A DNA stretch of 64,000 nt from Alphaproteobacteria bacterium (GCA_017853315.1 JAFMJW010000004.1:3008-67007), one strand, 5' to 3'. Shown: positions 4,758 through 36,497, numbered from the stretch's first letter. A program made the numbers and translations. The notes: generated by a model not told the origin, from the sequence alone.

Positions 4758-5470
4758 AGCGGGTCGCCGGTCGCGACCGCGCCGGCGCGACGGCGCTCGC
4801 CGTCGCGATCGCCCTCCTCGCGTGGGCGGGTTCCGCGACGGCTGCTCCCGCGGCGACGCCCGCCGCCTCGCCCGGGGCGACGTCCGCGGCACCGTCGGCG
4901 GCGACGCCCGAGGCGCGCGCGATCTTCGCGGGCGGATGCTTCTGGTGCGTCGAGGCCGCCTTCGACGAGGTCGACGGCGTGCTCGGCACGACCTCCGGCT
5001 TCGTCGGCGGACACGTGGAGAACCCGACCTACGCGCAGGTCTCCGCCGGCGGCACCGGCCACGCCGAGGCGGTCCTCGTGGTGTACGACCCGAAGCGCAC
5101 GACCTACGAGCACCTGCTGGACGTCTTCTGGCACAACGTCGACCCGCTCGCGGCCGGACGCCAGTTCTGCGACGTCGGCGACCAGTACCGCAGCGCCATC
5201 TTCTGGCTCGACGAGGAACAGCACCGGGCCGCGCTCGCCTCGAAGGAGGCGCTCCTGCGGGACGGACGGCTGCACGGGCGGATCGTGACCGAGATCCTCC
5301 CCGCCGGCCGTTTCTGGCCGGCCGAGGAGTACCACCAGGACTACCACCGCAAGAACCCGGCGAGGTACCGCTACTACCGGTGGTCCTGCGGCCGCGACGC
5401 CCGCCTTCGCGAGGTCTGGGGCGAGGCGGCCCCGCACGGGGACGGCCCGCACGGAGAGAGCGCGCACTGA
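4754..5470 (+). CDS. msrA: peptide methionine (S)-sulfoxide reductase MsrA, with predicted signal peptide
   Basis: GCFWCVE active-site motif. GTG start at 4754 overlaps the DUF35 stop (GTGA). N-terminus [20 protein letters not shown] looks like a secretion signal. Confidence 0.85.
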
Positions 5471-5592
5471 GCGGGCCCCCGCGGGCGGCGCGATTCCGCG
5501 CCTCGCCCGCTCCGTGTTCCGAGGCTAGGATCGGCACCAGCCGGAACGCCGCCGCCTTCCGCGGCCACGCTCGCCGGACGGAGCCCGAAGAC

Positions 5593-6012
5593 ATGTCGCA
5601 GGACAAGGTCGTGAAGTCGGACGAGGAGTGGCGCGCGCAGCTCGGGCCCGACCAGTTCGAGGTCTGTCGCCGCAAGGCGACCGAGCGCGCCTTCACCGGG
5701 CGGTACTGGGACCACCACGAGCAGGGCACCTACTGCTGCGCCGCGTGCCGCGCCGACCTCTTCTCGTCGGCGACGAAGTACGACTCGGGCAGCGGCTGGC
5801 CGAGTTTCTGGGAACCGGTCGCCGCCGACCGGATCGCCGTCGAGGAGGACCGCAGCCACGGCATGCGGCGCACCGAGATCCTGTGCGCAAGGTGCGGGTC
5901 GCACCTGGGCCACGTCTTCGAGGACGGGCCGAGGCCGACCGGCCTGCGCTACTGCGTCAACTCCCTGTCGCTCGACTTCGAGCCGGGGAAGAAGGAGGGA
6001 GAGTCGAAATGA
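5593..6012 (+). CDS. msrB: peptide methionine (R)-sulfoxide reductase MsrB
   Basis: CxxC...CxxC zinc site and the RYCVNS catalytic motif. About 139 aa. Confidence 0.9.
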
Positions 6013-6932
6013 ACGAGCAGGACCGCGACTCGATCTTCACCATCGCGATCATGGCGGCGCTGGCCGACGGGACCGCGACGCCAGCCGAGCTCGAGCGCGT
6101 TCGCGCGCTCGGCACCACGCTCGGCGCCGCCGACCTCGACGCGATCGCCGGCCGGGTCGCGCTGGGCGCGGTCTCGCTGGCCGAGACCGCGCAGCACCTC
6201 TCCGGCGCCGAGGCGAAGAGGGCCGCCTGGGAAGCCGCCGTCGCGGTCGTCATGGCCGACGGCGTCGCCGACGCCGCCGAGAAGCGCTTCCTCGACCAGC
6301 TGCGCGGCTCGCTCGGGCTCGACGAGGGCACCGCGTCCGCAGCCGAGCGAAGCGCCACCGACTTCGCGGGCTCGACCGCGCGCCCGCTCGAGGTGGTCGA
6401 GCACCCCGCCGGCAACGCGACCGGTGCCGGCCTCGACGACCTGATCCTGCAGCAGTCGATCGCGACCGCGGCCTGCGAGCTCCTGCCCGACCGGCTCGCG
6501 AACCTGGCGATCCTCCCGCTGCAGGCGCGCCTCGTCTACCGCATCGGGCAGGCGAGCGGGCAGCCGCTCGACGCCGAGCAGGCGAAGGACCTGATGGGCG
6601 CGCTCGGGCTGGGCGCCGCGGCGCAGATCGCCGAGACCGTCGTGCGCCGCGTGCTGGGCGGCGTCGCCGGCGGGATCCTCGGACGCGCGGTCGGCGGTCT
6701 CACCGGCGTCGCGGCCGGCGCCGCGGTGACCTTCGCGTCGACCTGGGCGCTCGGCCACGCGGCGCAGCAGTACTACGCGCAGGGCCGCCAGCTCTCCGCG
6801 GACGACCTCCGCAAGCTCTTCGAGCGGTTCCGCGGCGAGGCGATCGCGCTCTACCCGAAGGTGCGCGAGCAGGTCGAGGCGCAGGCGAAGTCGCTCGACC
6901 TGGAGAAGATCCTGAAGCAGTCGCGCGCCTGA
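6009..6932 (+). CDS. TerB-like N-terminal domain / DUF533-like membrane-associated protein
   Basis: N-terminus [20 protein letters not shown] resembles the TerB fold. The C-terminal half is Gly/Ala-rich and amphipathic. Its start overlaps the msrB stop (ATGA). Confidence 0.5.
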
Positions 6933-31461: not shown

Positions 31462-32229
31462 TCAGTCCGCCGCGCGCCCGGGCGGTAGCGGCAGGTCGCG
31501 CACGGTCCGGATGCGGTCGAAGGCGGCGGGGTTCGGGGGGATCGGCTCGCGGCGCCAGGGCGGGTCCGCGAACCACTCGTCGCCCGGCCCCTCGTCGACG
31601 CGACGGCGGAACGTGGCGAGCAGCGCGGCGGCGCGACGGCGGTGGTCCCGCCAGTCCTGCTCGATCCGCGAGCGCTGCGCTCGGCGGAGGTGGCGCGCGT
31701 AGGCAGCGAAGCCCGACGCGCGCAGGCGGCGGAACAGGCACGGGAGCAGCGCCGCCATCGTGAGCGCGACGGTCGCCGCGAGCCAGACCTCGCGGCGCGA
31801 GGCCGCCACCGCGACGAGACCGGTGAGCCCGGGTTCGGCGAGCGCGCCCTCCCCGCCGAGTTGCGACTGCAGCACCCGCCACTCCTCGAAGGCCGCGCGC
31901 AGCACGCCGGTGCGGACGAGCAGCCATGCCGCGAGCAGCGGCATCTGCAGGCCGACCCAGAAGCCGAGCGCCAGCACCTGGTTCCAGCCCGGCCGCCAGC
32001 GCCTCGCCTCGGCCTCGGTCGCGTCCGGCGGCATCCCGCCGCTCGCGACCAGCAGCCGCACGACGTTCAGGGTCGCGAACAGACCCGCCGCGCCGAGCAG
32101 CGAAGCCGCGACCGGCGAGCGGAGGGCGACCGAGCCGACCGCCGCGCAGGCGACCCCGCACAGCAGCGGCGGCAGCAGGTAGAGCTTCGAGAGCAGGGCG
32201 AGCCTGCGCCGCTCCGGCGCGGTGCACAT
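31462..32229 (-). CDS. hypothetical integral membrane protein
   Basis: Four or more hydrophobic helices. Last gene of the coupled OmpA/DUF4407 operon. No recognisable motif. Confidence 0.4.
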   Translation of the reverse strand: MCTAPERRRLALLSKLYLLPPLLCGVACAAVGSVALRSPVAASLLGAAGLFATLNVVRLLVASGGMPPDATEAEARRWRPGWNQVLALGFWVGLQMPLLAAWLLVRTGVLRAAFEEWRVLQSQLGGEGALAEPGLTGLVAVAASRREVWLAATVALTMAALLPCLFRRLRASGFAAYARHLRRAQRSRIEQDWRDHRRRAAALLATFRRRVDEGPGDEWFADPPWRREPIPPNPAAFDRIRTVRDLPLPPGRAAD

Positions 32230-32279
32230 CGCCACCACGTCGGGATCGATGCCGACGGCCCGGCACCAGGCGGGGGCGC

Positions 32280-33593
32280 TCACCCGGCGTCGCCCTCGCG
32301 GTCGTCGTCGCCGGGCCGGGGAGGAGCCTCGCCCATGCGCTTCTTCTCGTCCGCGACGAAGACCTCGTACTGGTGCTTCACCAGCGCGATCTCGGCCTGG
32401 TGCCGCGCCTTCTCCGCGGTGCCGAGCGCTTCGGCCGCGTGGTAGCGCGCGGTGATCTGCATCGTCTTGCCGTCGCGACTCGGGATCTCGCGCGGCTCGA
32501 CGCCCCAGCGCGCCTGCGCGAGCCGCTTCTGGTTCTCGGAGAGGTACTCGTAGGCGCCGGTCGCCATCATGAGCTTGAAGAGGATCGGGCCGCACTCGAT
32601 CGCGAGCAGGAGCAGCGCGATCATCCACGGCACCATGCCGCCGATCTTGTGCGAGATCTCGATGCGCTTCAGCAGCCCGTCGAGGTGCGCGGCGCGGTGC
32701 GAGTTCTCCTCGCGGCTCGCCTTCAAGCGCGCGTCGATGTCCTCGAGGTCGCGGACGTAGCGGGCGATGTCCTGCCGGATCGGCTCGTCCTGGGCGGCGG
32801 TCGACGCCTTCCACTCGTCGAGCTCCTTCTGCATCCGGTCGAGGTTCGCCGACTTGTCCTGCCAGGCCGGGCCGCGACCCGCCTTGCGCGAGCCGGAGAG
32901 GCCCTCGGCCTCCATCTCGAGCGCCTGGCGCTGCTTCAGGATCTCCTGGCGGCGCTTCTCGAACTCGACCGGCCGCTGATCGAGGCGGGCCTGTGCGGTG
33001 TCGCGCTTGGCGAGCAGTTCGTGCTTCTGGCCCTCGAAGACGAGCTCGGACTTCTCGTTCAGCTGGCGCTCGTACTCCTTCTGCTCGCCGGCGAGCGCGG
33101 AGTCGATCTCCGGCTTCAGGATGCGCAGCTCGAGCGGCGCCGACAGCACGATCGCGAACAGGATCGCCATCAGGATGCGGGGCAGCGCGCCGGCGAGTTC
33201 CTTCAGCGTGAGCCGCTCGGTGCCGTCGCCCTTGCCGGTGCTCGACACGATCAGCCGGTCGAGGTTGTAGATGATCGCCGCCCAGACCGCGCCGGCGGCG
33301 AGCGCCGTCCACAGCGCTTGCCGGTCGAGCGGCTCGGACGCGATCGCCGACTCGCTGCGCGGGCCGAACACCGAGTAGAAGGCGTAGCTGCCCGAAATGA
33401 ACGCGAGCACGCCGGTCGTGAGCACCACGCCGCCGATGCCCTGGTACTTCACGCGGTCGCTCTCGGGGCAGCGCTCGAGGATCTGCGCGTCCGCACCCGC
33501 CGAGTGCCAGAGCAGGCGGGTGAACCATCCGCCGGTGGCGTGGTAGTCGTAGGGGTCGATCTGGTCGGGCGAGAGCGGTTCGTCGTCGCTCAT
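32280..33593 (-). CDS. DUF4407-type membrane protein with long central coiled-coil
   Basis: N-terminal two-TM region (KYQGIGGVVLTTGVLAFISGSYAFYS), a coiled-coil of about 200 aa rich in E/K/R/Q, and a C-terminal TM segment. Start ATG overlaps the upstream ORF stop (ATGA). Confidence 0.55.
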   Translation of the reverse strand: MSDDEPLSPDQIDPYDYHATGGWFTRLLWHSAGADAQILERCPESDRVKYQGIGGVVLTTGVLAFISGSYAFYSVFGPRSESAIASEPLDRQALWTALAAGAVWAAIIYNLDRLIVSSTGKGDGTERLTLKELAGALPRILMAILFAIVLSAPLELRILKPEIDSALAGEQKEYERQLNEKSELVFEGQKHELLAKRDTAQARLDQRPVEFEKRRQEILKQRQALEMEAEGLSGSRKAGRGPAWQDKSANLDRMQKELDEWKASTAAQDEPIRQDIARYVRDLEDIDARLKASREENSHRAAHLDGLLKRIEISHKIGGMVPWMIALLLLAIECGPILFKLMMATGAYEYLSENQKRLAQARWGVEPREIPSRDGKTMQITARYHAAEALGTAEKARHQAEIALVKHQYEVFVADEKKRMGEAPPRPGDDDREGDAG

Positions 33594-34189
33594 GTCGTCC
33601 TCCTCCCGGCGCGGCCCGATCCCGGGCGGCGCACGTCTTCGTCGTACCATCGCGGAGCCCCGACGGGCTCGGGGACCCCGACCGGGGCCGGCATCTCGAG
33701 GCCGGCGAGCGGCGCCGGTGCCGCGGTGCGGGCGGGTGGCGCGGCCACGGCCGGGGCGGGCACGGCCGGGCGCGCGAAATCGGGCGGCAGCCCGGGGCGC
33801 CCCGGGCGACGGCGGACACGGCCCGCGGCACGCTCGACCCAGGTGCGCTTGCGCGCGGTCGGCAGCCTCCGCTGCACCCGCAGGCCATCCGGATCGGGCT
33901 CGAGTCGCGGCACTTCTCCCTCGGCCACCGGCAGGTTCGAGTCGATCTCGAGCACGGCCCGGCCGAGCCCGGCCGTCGAGATCGCGAGCACCGGGATCCG
34001 GTGGTCGACCGGCGCCAGCAGCGGGACGCCACGGTCGGTGCGGAGCCGCAACCACAGGCCGCCGATGTGCACGAGCGCGGGCCGACGGCTCCGGACCCAG
34101 ATCGGCGCGCGCGTGCTCGGCGCGCGCAGTCGCCGCGACGGCCGCCACAGCAGCCACGGGATCCCCTCGATCGGCTCACTGGCCGGCAT
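33590..34189 (-). CDS. hypothetical protein, coupled to DUF4407 gene
   Basis: The ATGA overlap with the downstream start supports a real CDS. The first roughly 130 aa are non-repetitive, followed by a Pro/Ala-rich tail. Confidence 0.35.
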   Translation of the reverse strand: MPASEPIEGIPWLLWRPSRRLRAPSTRAPIWVRSRRPALVHIGGLWLRLRTDRGVPLLAPVDHRIPVLAISTAGLGRAVLEIDSNLPVAEGEVPRLEPDPDGLRVQRRLPTARKRTWVERAAGRVRRRPGRPGLPPDFARPAVPAPAVAAPPARTAAPAPLAGLEMPAPVGVPEPVGAPRWYDEDVRRPGSGRAGRRTT

Positions 34190-35669
34190 CGCCGCCTCCG
34201 GGACACGAGACCACGACGTCGACGCGGCGGTTCAGTCGCTGCAGCGGGCTGCCCGGTGCGGCGCGGACGAGCGGCTCCGACTCGCCGTGGCCCTCGAGGT
34301 CGAGGCGATCGCTCGGCAGCGCCTGCCAGCGCAGGAGCCAGTCGCCGACCGCCCGCGCTCGCTCCCGGCTGAGTTCGTCGTTGTGCTCGGGAAGTCCGGT
34401 CTCGTCGGCGTGGCCGACGAGCTTGACCCGGACTTCGGGCGACGCCTGCACGACGCGGTGGAGCTTGCGCAGTTGCGGGAGCGACTCGGGACGCAACTTC
34501 GCGCTGTCGAGCGGAAACAGGAGATCGCCCGACATGTGGATCGTCTGGCCGCACTCGAGGCGCCCCTGCGAGAGCGCCGCATCGAGGCCGATGCGCCGCA
34601 GCGGGCCGCGACTCGCCTGCTCCACGAGGTCCGCATCGGGATCGCGCGCGGGCAGCGACGGCCACTCGCCGGCCGCGTCGGGCGAGCCGGGGCCGGCCGC
34701 GTCGGGTTCGTCCTCGCCGGGTTCGGCCGCGTCGTTCCGCGCGCCCGCGGGCGCCCCGCCCTCGCCTTCGCCGCCGCCGGCGGGGGCATCGGAGCCGGGC
34801 GCAGGCGCTCCTTCGGGCACGCCGGACACGGGCGCCTCGCTCCGCGCACCGGCTCCCGTGACCGCCCCCGGCGCAAGTCCGCGCCGGCACCCCGTGCGCT
34901 GCCACCCCGTCAACGCGATCGGCAACGCGATCGCGAGGAGAAAGAGCGGAAGCCCGAGACGACCGGCTCGGCTCGCCGCGGCGAGCGCCCCGGCGAGCAG
35001 GACGATCCAGAGGAGTCCGGGGATCGGCAGGCACGGGGTGAACAGCCAGTGCAGCAGGAGCCATGCGAGTGCGAGCGGCAGCAGCCAGGAAGCGTCGGGC
35101 GCGAGCCCGACGCCGAGCCGCGGCCCGAGCGTCGTCGCCGAAGCGCGCCACGCGAACGCCGCCGCGAGAAGCGCGAGCGCCGCGAGCAACGCGGGCAGCC
35201 AGTTCGACGTCCACGCCGCGAGCGCGAGCAGGAGCAGGGCGAGGAGCGGCCCGCATCCCGACGCGAGCGGCGGGGCGCGCCGGTCGTCGACCCAGGTCGC
35301 CCCGAAGCGGCGAGGCTCGGCGACGGGACCCGCCGCGAGCCGTCCGACCAGGTGTCCGCGGACGCACCAGAGACTGCGGTCGCCGTCGTCGCGCGCGAGG
35401 CGCGGCCGGCCCCAGTGCAGTCGCGCGTCGTGCAGCCAGAGCCGATACCACTGCCCGTTCTCGAGTTCGGCGAGGATCGGGCCGAGCACCGGCCACTCGA
35501 CCGGGGTCGGGTCGGCGGGGCTCGCGGGCGTGTCGTCGACGAGCCGACCCGGGCGCAGGGTTCCCCAGTCGAGACGCAGGTCGTGGAAACGCGAGACCCC
35601 GCGGGCCTCGGCATCCGGGGACGGAAGCCCCACGAACCAACCCTCGAACGGACCGTGGAGCGTGGACAT
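34176..35669 (-). CDS. OmpA/MotB-like C-terminal peptidoglycan-binding domain membrane protein
   Basis: C-terminus LFPLDSAKL...VKLVGHADETGLPEHNDELSRERA is an OmpA_C-like domain. There is a central multi-TM region and a roughly 120 aa N-terminal domain. Confidence 0.6.
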   Translation of the reverse strand: MSTLHGPFEGWFVGLPSPDAEARGVSRFHDLRLDWGTLRPGRLVDDTPASPADPTPVEWPVLGPILAELENGQWYRLWLHDARLHWGRPRLARDDGDRSLWCVRGHLVGRLAAGPVAEPRRFGATWVDDRRAPPLASGCGPLLALLLLALAAWTSNWLPALLAALALLAAAFAWRASATTLGPRLGVGLAPDASWLLPLALAWLLLHWLFTPCLPIPGLLWIVLLAGALAAASRAGRLGLPLFLLAIALPIALTGWQRTGCRRGLAPGAVTGAGARSEAPVSGVPEGAPAPGSDAPAGGGEGEGGAPAGARNDAAEPGEDEPDAAGPGSPDAAGEWPSLPARDPDADLVEQASRGPLRRIGLDAALSQGRLECGQTIHMSGDLLFPLDSAKLRPESLPQLRKLHRVVQASPEVRVKLVGHADETGLPEHNDELSRERARAVGDWLLRWQALPSDRLDLEGHGESEPLVRAAPGSPLQRLNRRVDVVVSCPGGGDAGQ

Positions 35670-35734
35670 GCGCGCGCGGCCGCCCGCGCGCGAGACGGGC
35701 GGCCGGCCCATCTGCCCGCCGGGGCCGAGGAATG

Positions 35735-36229
35735 TCAACGCGGGCCGGAGTCCGGGGCCAACGGCTGTCGAAGCGGGGCGGAGAACGCCCCCTCGGTGTC
35801 GATCGGGATCGTGACCGGCCCCTCGTTCACGAGCGAGACGCGCATGGTCGCACCGAAGCGGCCACGCGCCGTTCGCAGGCCGAGGCGCTCGACCTCGTCG
35901 GCGAACGCGAGGTAGAGCGGCTCGGCGCGGTCGCCGGGCGCGGCACGCCCGAAGGAGGGTCGCCGACCGGAGCGGCAGTCGGCCCAGAGCGTGAACTGCG
36001 AGACGACCAGCACCTCGCCTCCGACGTCCGCCAGGGAGAGGTTCATGCGCCCCTGCTCGTCCTCGAAGACCCGCAGCCCGACGATCCTCGCGGCGAACGA
36101 GCGCGCCACCGCGAGGTCGTCGTCGTGCCCGACGCCGAGCAGGACGAGCGCACCGCGGCCGATCTCGCCGACGGTCTCGCCGTCGACCGAGACGCGGGCC
36201 TCGCTCACGCGTTGCAGGATCGCCCGCAC
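35735..36229 (-). CDS. dtd: D-aminoacyl-tRNA deacylase
   Basis: SQFTL motif, N-terminal VRAILQRV, about 164 aa. Confidence 0.85.
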   Translation of the reverse strand: MRAILQRVSEARVSVDGETVGEIGRGALVLLGVGHDDDLAVARSFAARIVGLRVFEDEQGRMNLSLADVGGEVLVVSQFTLWADCRSGRRPSFGRAAPGDRAEPLYLAFADEVERLGLRTARGRFGATMRVSLVNEGPVTIPIDTEGAFSAPLRQPLAPDSGPR

Positions 36230-36248: not shown

Positions 36249-36497
36249 TCAGACCGTGTCCATGCAGGTGCGCATGAAGCCGCAGAGCCGGCACAGGTAC
36301 TTGCAGTGGCCCAGCGTCTGCAGCGGCGAGCCGCACGCGTCGCACTCGAGCCAGTCGGGCTCGCGCCGCACCTCCGCCGCCGGCATCGAGGCGCGCCTCG
36401 CCGCGAGCGACACCACCTTCTCGCCCTTCTCCACGTCCACCTCCCCACCGCCCGGCGCGCCCTGTGCGCCGCGATCCGTCGCTGCCATGCGCGACAC
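36249..36497 (-). CDS. small Cys-rich (zinc-ribbon-like) hypothetical protein
   Basis: CDACG...CKYLCRLCG cysteines. Upstream of dtd. The true start may be internal. Confidence 0.3.
   Translation of the reverse strand: MSRMAATDRGAQGAPGGGEVDVEKGEKVVSLAARRASMPAAEVRREPDWLECDACGSPLQTLGHCKYLCRLCGFMRTCMDTV

Follow-up and report, generated by a model that had tools for sequence, protein, structure and literature searches.

A recurrent four-gene envelope module combining a DUF4407 protein, its predicted divergent paralogue and a putative peptidoglycan-binding partner

The subject of this analysis is a group of four consecutive genes on the minus strand (positions 31462-35669) of a 64,000-nucleotide (nt) stretch of DNA from an Alphaproteobacteria bacterium (GCA_017853315.1, JAFMJW010000004.1:3008-67007), hereafter called the window, in which positions are counted from the first letter. 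In the order X-S-D-F, these genes encode an OmpA-domain protein (X), a small protein (S), a DUF4407 protein (D) and a fourth protein (F). The examination of gene junctions combined with profile searches shows X-S-D-F to be a self-contained, translationally coupled module, which reappears as a unit in numerous distant genomes. The preliminary description of the window had proposed a translationally coupled envelope operon of uncharacterised genes, which is borne out by the present results; absent from it were three features documented below, i.e. the predicted nature of F as a DUF4407 paralogue, the optional status of the OmpA_C domain on a novel core of X, and the conservation in position of the small gene. 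No description of the D+F pair, of the X core or of the S partner was found in Pfam, NCBIfam, PADLOC, PHROGs or the literature searched.

Because the window has ~74% G+C throughout, long open reading frames (ORFs) occur in all frames, and coding was therefore judged by codon-position bias. The phase of the high-GC third codon position (GC3) changes exactly at the proposed gene borders, being 1 over 31462-32283, 0 over 32280-33593, 2 over 33590-34189 and 0 over 34176-35669, and identical copies of all four products are present as called genes in public assemblies. X (34176..35669, minus strand, 497 amino acids (aa)) is delimited by its ORF, the GC3 phase and a Pfam OmpA match (E-value 8e-15); its start is ambiguous, the ATG at 35669 fitting the N-termini of the homologues and the ATG at 35711 (511 aa) having been taken by the public gene callers. 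S (33590..34189, minus, 199 aa) is identified by the GC3 phase and as a called gene elsewhere, D (32280..33593, minus, 437 aa) by its match to the Pfam family PF14362 (E-value 1.1e-64), and F (31462..32283, minus, 273 aa, with 4 predicted transmembrane (TM) helices) by profile homology to D and its position directly downstream of it. The arrangement of four consecutive overlapping genes, as well as the 14-nt and ATGA junctions noted in the preliminary description, is confirmed: the stop codon of X (34176-34178) and the ATG of S (34189) overlap by 14 nt (34176..34189, minus), with GGAGG upstream of the S start, and the stop codon of S overlaps the ATG of D (33593) in the tetranucleotide ATGA (33590..33593, minus), with GGGAGGAGG upstream. 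The sequence of the third junction, which had not been spelled out, reveals a GTGA overlap between the D stop and the F start (32280..32283, minus). Overlaps of 4-8 nt are likewise present in independent gene calls of three further contigs, and among 49 related loci D and F overlap by 4 nt in 18, their junction falling between -4 and +12 nt in 44. Consensus scans for promoters and terminators in this 74% GC region returned nothing, and the G+C content along the window shows no compositional break at the module.

Related loci (numbered below with the prefix L) were collected by a pattern scan covering a single genome for each GTDB species, which yielded 66 loci, all from metagenome-assembled genomes (MAGs) and mostly labelled Myxococcota; they were translated in six frames and searched with profiles built from the window proteins. 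Linkage was counted in the 39 genome loci with enough flanking DNA. Adjacent to D and on the same strand, the X-core (the N-terminal β-domain and five-helix membrane region of X) and/or an OmpA_C domain was found in all 39 loci, F in 34, an OmpA_C domain as such in 29 and S in 26; the flanks contain 2 OmpA_C domains in 499 kb, so that ~0.9 loci would be expected to have one beside D by chance, against the 29 observed. The order of the genes varies (X-S-D-F, S-D-F-X, or D-X without F), the set of genes is retained, and the loci range from 31 to 73% GC. Flanking genes are common only to the two closest relatives, which argues that the module and not its neighbourhood is the conserved unit. The synteny of the module in dozens of unrelated contigs also answers the gene-neighbourhood test proposed at the outset, by which a lack of synteny elsewhere would have spoken against an operon of this kind. 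We observed in addition that one MAG (VK_bin-1538) carries two diverged D-F modules, on the contigs L016 and L061, with D proteins 50% and 43% identical to that of the window, and that several MAG loci (L006, L009, L012, L066 and others) bear taxon labels that look implausible, such as 'Klebsiella pneumoniae' for L006 (72% G+C) or 'Bifidobacterium breve' for L066, both amid relatives labelled mostly Myxococcota; the labels of these MAGs call for caution.

The Pfam comparison identified D as a full-length member of DUF4407 (219 bits against a gathering score of 31.3 bits, positions 1-296 of the 297 in the profile), with 1022 homologues at E-value ≤1e-5. Together with the OmpA_C domain of X, this assignment agrees with the preliminary description. 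According to hydropathy and the AlphaFold2 (AF2) model, three helices (aa 47-76, 91-118 and 130-158) precede a long antiparallel helical hairpin, which is followed by a fourth TM helix and a C-terminal domain of ~90 aa. Thus, of the anatomy suggested for D earlier, the coiled coil and the C-terminal TM segment are upheld, whereas the two N-terminal TM segments are replaced by three, and the coiled coil of about 200 aa shrinks to a hairpin of ~140 aa (160-302). The TM1-TM3 region (aa 47-158; 33120..33455, minus) carries the motifs FN(I/L)DR(F/L)IVSSTGKGDG and PR...S.PLE. In the hairpin (aa 160-229 and 242-302; 32688..33116, minus) the model (mc7f3ea3c2649) has a predicted local distance difference test score (pLDDT) of 83-92 on the arms, whose 70 residues correspond to a length of ~10 nm. 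A comparison of 15 homologues (~48% identity) revealed 84 invariant columns, concentrated in four places: the loop between TM2 and TM3 (FNIDRFIVSSTGKGDG), the TM3 ends (PR...S.PLE), the tip of the hairpin and TM4 (E333-x-G-P...F-K). The tip motif, E-x-EAEG-x7-GRGPAW-x-DK (aa 226-247; 32853..32918, minus), includes the invariant residues E226, E228, A229, E230, G231, G239, R240, G241, P242, A243, W244, D246 and K247, and TM4 (aa 321-344; 32562..32633, minus) displays an acidic residue within the membrane, E333, followed by G335-P336 and by K340 at its end, all of them in invariant columns. The PR and SxPL motifs, the Gly-rich tip and the acidic residue and Pro of TM4 are kept even at 25-32% identity, in the homologues from an actinomycete and from Lak megaphages.

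No known fold or function could be attached to D by comparison. Foldseek searches of the PDB gave a best E-value of 0.057, with template modelling scores (TM-scores) <0.3 to generic coiled coils and ABC transporters; the search of BFVD gave a best E-value of 1.5e-3 and TM-scores of ~0.2 to uncharacterised phage proteins, i.e. nothing usable, and sequence-profile searches of the PDB with D, F and the X-core came back empty. That the coiled-coil protein might be a housekeeping factor of the PspA or flotillin type had been named as an outcome that would refute the initial proposal; D shows no Pfam match to PspA_IM30 or Band_7/flotillin at E-value ≤0.1, no fold of these types (nor an ESCRT-III-like one) is found among the best 50 Foldseek matches listed, all of which have E-values >0.05, and there is no sequence relative in the PDB. 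A resemblance of the tip sequence AGRGPAW to GRGFAV of the chemoreceptor tip was considered and dismissed as a coincidence or an analogy only, since the motif is short and D has no match to Pfam MCPsignal. The literature on DUF4407/PF14362 was found to consist of three passing mentions among 8 million papers, in gene lists and with no functional information. Outside the module, a solo DUF4407 homologue is present in 15 of 15 Lak megaphage genomes (30-32% identity over 74% of D), exemplified by that of Prevotella phage Lak-A2 (L073; MK250019.1, 485004-486314, locus positions 4926-6236); the Lak proteins have no F-, X- or OmpA-like neighbours, and no other phage in the collection carries DUF4407. 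The only match among plasmids (PLSDB), NZ_LT559118.1 (L074), is labelled 'Nonomuraea gerenzanensis plasmid I', has 11.85 Mb and is evidently a chromosome; its DUF4407 homologue is distant (24.5% identity) and lies inside an unannotated stretch.

F of the window has no match in Pfam, NCBIfam, PADLOC or PHROGs. The profile-profile comparison (hhalign) nevertheless related F to D (probability 95.5%, E-value 1.6e-8) over TM1-TM3 only, the F hidden Markov model (HMM) detects the DUF4407 proteins of Lak phages (2.5e-18), and Pfam DUF4407 in turn matches the F orthologue of L059 (6.6e-6, 26.1 bits) below the gathering score of 31.3. The N..R...G(G) loop, P...P(L/Q) helix and, after TM4, the A.xY(E/D) motif are kept in F, which has neither the long hairpin nor the invariant loop GKGDG; its Arg-rich tail bears the motif ADPP(W/Y). 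To judge from these comparisons, F is a divergent, truncated paralogue of DUF4407 without the long hairpin, and not a formal member of PF14362. Many F orthologues, such as those of L018, L026, L028, L035, L036, L037 and L058, are extended by a linker rich in Pro and by a helical domain of ~100 aa, conserved at the C-terminus, with the motif ...FPEWNKLPTLLLK...RRLRAAPRDKK.S.VFAPELARRLL, which has no Pfam match; this domain is absent from F of the window, which ends soon after the ADPP(Y/W) motif. In two loci, L012 (11275-13497) and L014 (4362-6629), F runs on into two zinc-ribbon motifs and a C-terminal, 6-TM rhomboid protease domain (PF01694, E-values 1e-29 and 3e-29). These are two of the three loci of a sub-clade with ~42-45% GC, the third of which, L021, has F with a zinc ribbon only. 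Two candidate fusions of F with X were rejected. The OmpA protein of 620-630 aa that follows D in L004, L013, L022, L044 and L053 looked like a 'Rosetta-stone' F-X fusion; the F HMM does not recognise it, it begins with the X-core, and F is absent from these loci. The 706-aa protein that comes after D in L071 turned out to be F with a helical extension of ~400 aa, with neither X-core nor OmpA domain.

Protein X is composed of four parts and has no signal peptide. The N-terminal domain (aa 3-111; 35337..35663, minus) is all-β in the AF2 model (ma8d601828995), with six long strands and pLDDT mostly 70-89, and is followed by a polytopic region with five TM helices (aa 140-260; 34890..35252, minus), delineated by hydropathy, AF2 helices and loop charges. 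Two conserved cysteines, Cys213 and Cys261, both fall on the predicted periplasmic side. A low-complexity linker rich in Ala, Gly, Pro, Glu and Asp (aa 261-343; 34641..34889, minus) is predicted to be disordered (pLDDT <50 over 267-327), and leads to the OmpA_C-type domain (aa 385-473; 34251..34517, minus), which scores 55.4 bits against a PF00691 cut-off of 27.2, is also matched by OmpA-like families of NCBIfam and carries the canonical D...G...N..LS..RA motif (HADETG...NDELSRERA). Foldseek aligned this domain with the peptidoglycan-binding domains of PA0833, OmpA, YfiB, PorE, MotB, Pal and TagL (probability 1.0, TM-score to target 0.6-0.9), and it is predicted from both sequence and model to be of the peptidoglycan-binding type. 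In the search with the whole X model, matches to the OmpA domain prevailed, and the fold of the N-terminal β-domain is not classifiable from it.

The β-domain and membrane region of X, the X-core, form a tiny family that has no Pfam model, with no match in Pfam at E-value ≤1 and no relative in the PDB. Word-indexed homologue searches with it returned 3 and 16 proteins, and when HMMER was run exhaustively over 1.84 billion representative proteins, 76 clusters were found. The X-core lies beside D in 52 of 70 loci, some of them without any OmpA_C domain, and by these searches it is essentially confined to the neighbourhood of D; the OmpA_C domain, by the same comparisons, is best described as an optional appendage on the conserved core. 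Tandem OmpA_C domains are found on X in L012, L014 and L021, and an X-like protein in a contig of 31% GC labelled Flavobacteriales (L060:5329-6963) has an OmpA_C domain followed by SH3_3, a second wall-binding module.

S has neither a TM helix nor a signal peptide; its N-terminal half is β-rich and its tail rich in Pro and Ala, and it has no match in Pfam, NCBIfam, PADLOC or PHROGs. The small gene directly upstream of D belongs to one family in at least 29 loci, with both gene orders, to which S of the window is related marginally (hhalign E-value 9.7e-4, probability 22%). We therefore regard S as the positional orthologue of this family, with a putative homology that is marginal by sequence. 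S is a small, soluble and fast-evolving protein. A homology of S to the N-terminal β-domain of X was considered and found unsupported (hhalign probability 2.8%).

A topology can be proposed for the three membrane proteins. As the OmpA_C domain must be periplasmic and is preceded by five TM helices with no signal peptide, the β-domain of X should be cytoplasmic, and the C-terminus of F is placed in the cytoplasm by its fusion, in L012 and L014, to zinc ribbons of the Cys4 type and a rhomboid with six TM helices. The counts of Lys and Arg in the loops agree with this orientation for F and X. The homology of D and F extends through the TM domain, so that the stretch from TM3 to TM4, occupied in D by the hairpin, is predicted to be periplasmic; with textbook dimensions of the envelope, the tip would then come to about the level of the sacculus.

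What could such a set of proteins do? We tentatively favour, while giving it somewhat less than an even chance, a trans-envelope sensor or tether, anchored to peptidoglycan, through which the condition of the wall or periplasm would be linked to the cytoplasmic side. In such a device the X, S, D and F proteins would together form one inner-membrane complex, with a heteromeric core made of a possibly 'active' D and a degenerate F, both of which would have cytoplasmic N- and C-termini. The hairpin of D would reach into the periplasm, and X would staple the complex to peptidoglycan via its tethered OmpA_C domain while showing its β-domain to the cytoplasm, where this domain could serve as a docking place for S and for the conserved tails of D and F. 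The fast-evolving S might then be an adaptor in the cytoplasm. In D, the carboxylate-Pro pair buried in TM4 and the conserved polar residues at the ends of TM2 and TM3 suggest ion-coupled or conformational transmembrane signalling, and in some lineages the output might pass through the fused rhomboid protease.

Several observations weigh against this proposal. The assembly into a single complex is deduced from operon structure alone. No output domain (kinase, nuclease or ATPase) that could provide a sensor with its readout is recognisable in the module. The topology is built from hydropathy, AF2 helices, the positive-inside trend and the logic of fusions, and for D the loop charges are only weakly consistent with it. 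The AF2 models of D and X have moderate confidence (pLDDT 70, predicted TM-score (pTM) 0.37-0.39), having been calculated from shallow alignments. The tip motif of D is found also in the actinomycete and phage homologues, and hence its ligand should not be specific to the Gram-negative envelope. OmpA_C is absent from ~25% of the loci, and X is missing beside the module in at least one of them, L071; tethering to peptidoglycan is thus not obligatory. Moreover, all the carriers of the module found are MAGs.

If the sensor or tether is nonetheless taken as the working model, the module would be analogous to several peptidoglycan-anchored inner-membrane complexes and a homologue of none. In the Tol-Pal system, inner-membrane proteins, a long periplasmic helical element (domain II of TolA) and a peptidoglycan binder of the OmpA_C family (Pal) link the layers of the envelope. 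The same three kinds of element are found or predicted here; however, no homology to TolQ, TolR, TolA, TolB or Pal extends beyond the generic OmpA_C fold, and the peptidoglycan binder is a polytopic inner-membrane protein and not an outer-membrane lipoprotein. X also resembles the long form of TssL and TagL of the type VI secretion system (T6SS) in its layout, in which a predicted cytoplasmic domain is joined through a membrane-anchoring part to an OmpA-like, peptidoglycan-binding domain in the periplasm that fixes the machine to the wall. TIGR03350 matches the OmpA part of X at 2.5e-12, with scores far under the family cut-offs, and TagL is among the fold matches, but the similarity is limited to the OmpA domain, no T6SS genes lie near the module, and the N-terminal domain and TM core of X have no relatives outside it.

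Among the alternatives, the one that survives best, although we consider it rather unlikely, is an anti-phage or abortive-infection membrane system with a logic like that of Zorya or Kiwa, in which X would sense the disturbance of the wall at phage entry and D/F would be the effector that opens a pore or depolarises the membrane. The distribution of the module looks accessory, 66 of 66 genome loci being from MAGs and none from a cultured isolate; its flanking genes are variable, one MAG has it twice (L016 and L061), S evolves fast, and the solo DUF4407 proteins of Lak megaphages are what one would expect of a conflict or superinfection-exclusion protein. There are also weak PADLOC matches to ZorB and DruG, which touch only the generic OmpA domain (E-value 3e-4) and the coiled coil (1.6e-3), respectively; the comparison with PADLOC-DB v2 gave nothing below E-value 1e-4 for any protein of the module and no match for S and F, and no defence system was recognised. 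The genomic context speaks the same way: bar one PIN toxin-antitoxin pair, neither the window nor four annotated loci have nuclease, NTPase or protease effectors, defence genes, integrases or transposases as neighbours, and the composition around the module is not anomalous. Very strong purifying selection acts on D (~50% identity, 84 invariant columns across the family), and DUF4407 is nearly absent from plasmids, with one match that is really a chromosome. The suggestion of a defence-type machinery made in the preliminary description is therefore not supported, as no soluble effector genes accompany the module and no defence or mobile genes flank it in the window.

The likeness to Zorya deserves a closer look, as a resemblance to anchors of the MotB/ZorB type had been put forward originally. 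In Zorya, ZorA5B2 is a peptidoglycan-binding, proton-driven motor whose cytoplasmic coiled-coil tail of ~70 nm signals to ZorC and ZorD, the complete systems consisting of ZorA, ZorB and subtype-specific soluble effectors (ZorC/D, ZorE or ZorF/G) (PMC11946911). The module shares with ZorAB and the other 5:2 motors (MotAB, TolQR, ExbBD) an inner-membrane complex, here a predicted one, a linker-borne peptidoglycan-binding domain of the OmpA-like type, a long α-helical coiled-coil partner, a buried conserved acidic residue and tightly coupled genes. The proteins themselves are different. Neither D nor F matches PF01618 or ZorA at E-value ≤0.1, no 5:2 motor is found among the fold matches, and none is encoded nearby. 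X has a β-domain of 110 aa and five TM helices, whereas ZorB and MotB have one Asp-bearing TM helix, a plug or linker and the peptidoglycan-binding domain, and the PADLOC ZorB and NCBIfam MotB matches to X cover the OmpA domain only, far under the cut-offs, with no ZorA, ZorC, ZorD or ZorE. The coiled coil is here a hairpin of ~10 nm between TM helices, predicted to be periplasmic, in contrast to the ~70 nm cytoplasmic tail of Zorya; effectors like ZorC/D are missing and the OmpA_C domain is optional. Of the marks of membership in the Zorya or MotB type, the OmpA domain is thus the only one present, and the stator comparison of the preliminary description does not hold.

Or perhaps the module could be an ion-driven motor of stator type without homology to MotAB, TolQR, ExbBD, ZorAB or GldLM, D and F forming an ion-channel ring and X the peptidoglycan-anchored stator? 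The invariant acidic residue and Pro within the membrane in TM4 of D, the polar residues conserved at helix ends, the flexible linker of the peptidoglycan-binding partner and the tight coupling of two membrane subunits are compatible with such a machine. We judge it improbable, as there is no TM signature of the MotA_ExbB or MotB type, Foldseek found no similarity to a 5:2 motor, X has five TM helices and no single Asp-bearing helix, ~25% of the loci do without OmpA_C, and no driven element, be it a rotor, a partner like TonB or TolA, or an effector, is encoded.

The polysaccharide co-polymerases (PCPs) Wzz and Wzc and the membrane-fusion proteins (MFPs) possess a TM-flanked or anchored, periplasmic, antiparallel coiled-coil hairpin of ~10 nm with a functionally critical tip. 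The modelled hairpin of D, which is flanked by TM helices, is likewise ~10 nm long and has a conserved tip. From this general likeness one may imagine an export or periplasmic conduit, in which the hairpins of D would oligomerise to a tube or cage that guides a substrate, the membrane domains of D, F and X providing the inner-membrane channel; each set of D, F and X would contribute 13 TM helices, with conserved polar residues. This possibility carries a small probability in our estimation: there is no match to Wzz, GNVR or HlyD in Pfam and none to PCPs or MFPs in the structural comparison, and neither ABC, RND or MFS transporters nor Wzx/Wzy, glycosyltransferases or outer-membrane channels are encoded consistently next to the module.

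A scaffold for membrane-protein quality control or regulated intramembrane proteolysis, with D/F organising or gating a protease as HflK/C do for FtsH, could account for the rhomboid protease domain which, with two zinc ribbons, is fused to F in L012 and L014. It is nevertheless very improbable, given that the fusion is restricted to two loci of one sub-clade, that neither the window nor most of the other loci have a rhomboid or any other protease linked to the module, and that no SPFH/Band_7 domain is present. The idea that the four genes are mere neighbours with no shared function is hardly tenable at all in view of the conserved start/stop overlaps, the retention of the gene set despite reordering and across 31-73% GC, and the X-core being found essentially only beside D.

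The neighbours of the module in the window are ordinary metabolic or housekeeping genes (dtd, a DsbA-family gene, a sulfatase, an MBL hydrolase, SRAP, PadR and leuCD), and no defence or mobile genes flank it there. The gene dtd, for D-tyrosyl-tRNA deacylase (35735-36229, minus strand), ends 21-63 nt upstream of X, and in the window the module may be co-transcribed with it. Among the related loci this arrangement recurs only in L006; the closest relative, L005, has just 100 nt upstream of D. Just upstream of dtd, a Cys-rich ORF of 79-82 aa (36249-36497, minus) with a zinc-ribbon-like pattern (CDACG...CKYLCRLCG) is kept in L006, a relative with 84% identity (E-value 4e-31), and is a called gene in public data; it has no Pfam match.

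The tractability of the module is limited, as all its carriers found are uncultured MAGs. The analysis provides the first defined genetic context for DUF4407, a widespread membrane family, consisting of the predicted F paralogue, the X-core partner and recurrent cell-wall-binding domains; the latter include OmpA_C, tandem OmpA_C and SH3, to which a rhomboid protease is added in two related loci (L012 and L014). A bolder proposal, which must be considered a long shot, is that pairs of DUF4407 proteins together with X constitute a hitherto unrecognised class of ion-coupled, peptidoglycan-anchored trans-envelope machines non-homologous to MotAB, ExbBD, TolQR, ZorAB and GldLM, in which the hairpin tip would read or act on the wall and which would drive rhomboid proteolysis or abortive defence in some lineages; if this were true, the solo DUF4407 proteins of megaphages and Gram-positive bacteria would be stripped-down versions of such machines. 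Should the module prove to be an envelope sensor, a tether or a defence device, its non-homologous architecture would join the few peptidoglycan-anchored inner-membrane machines; otherwise, it would be one among the many conserved operons of unknown function.

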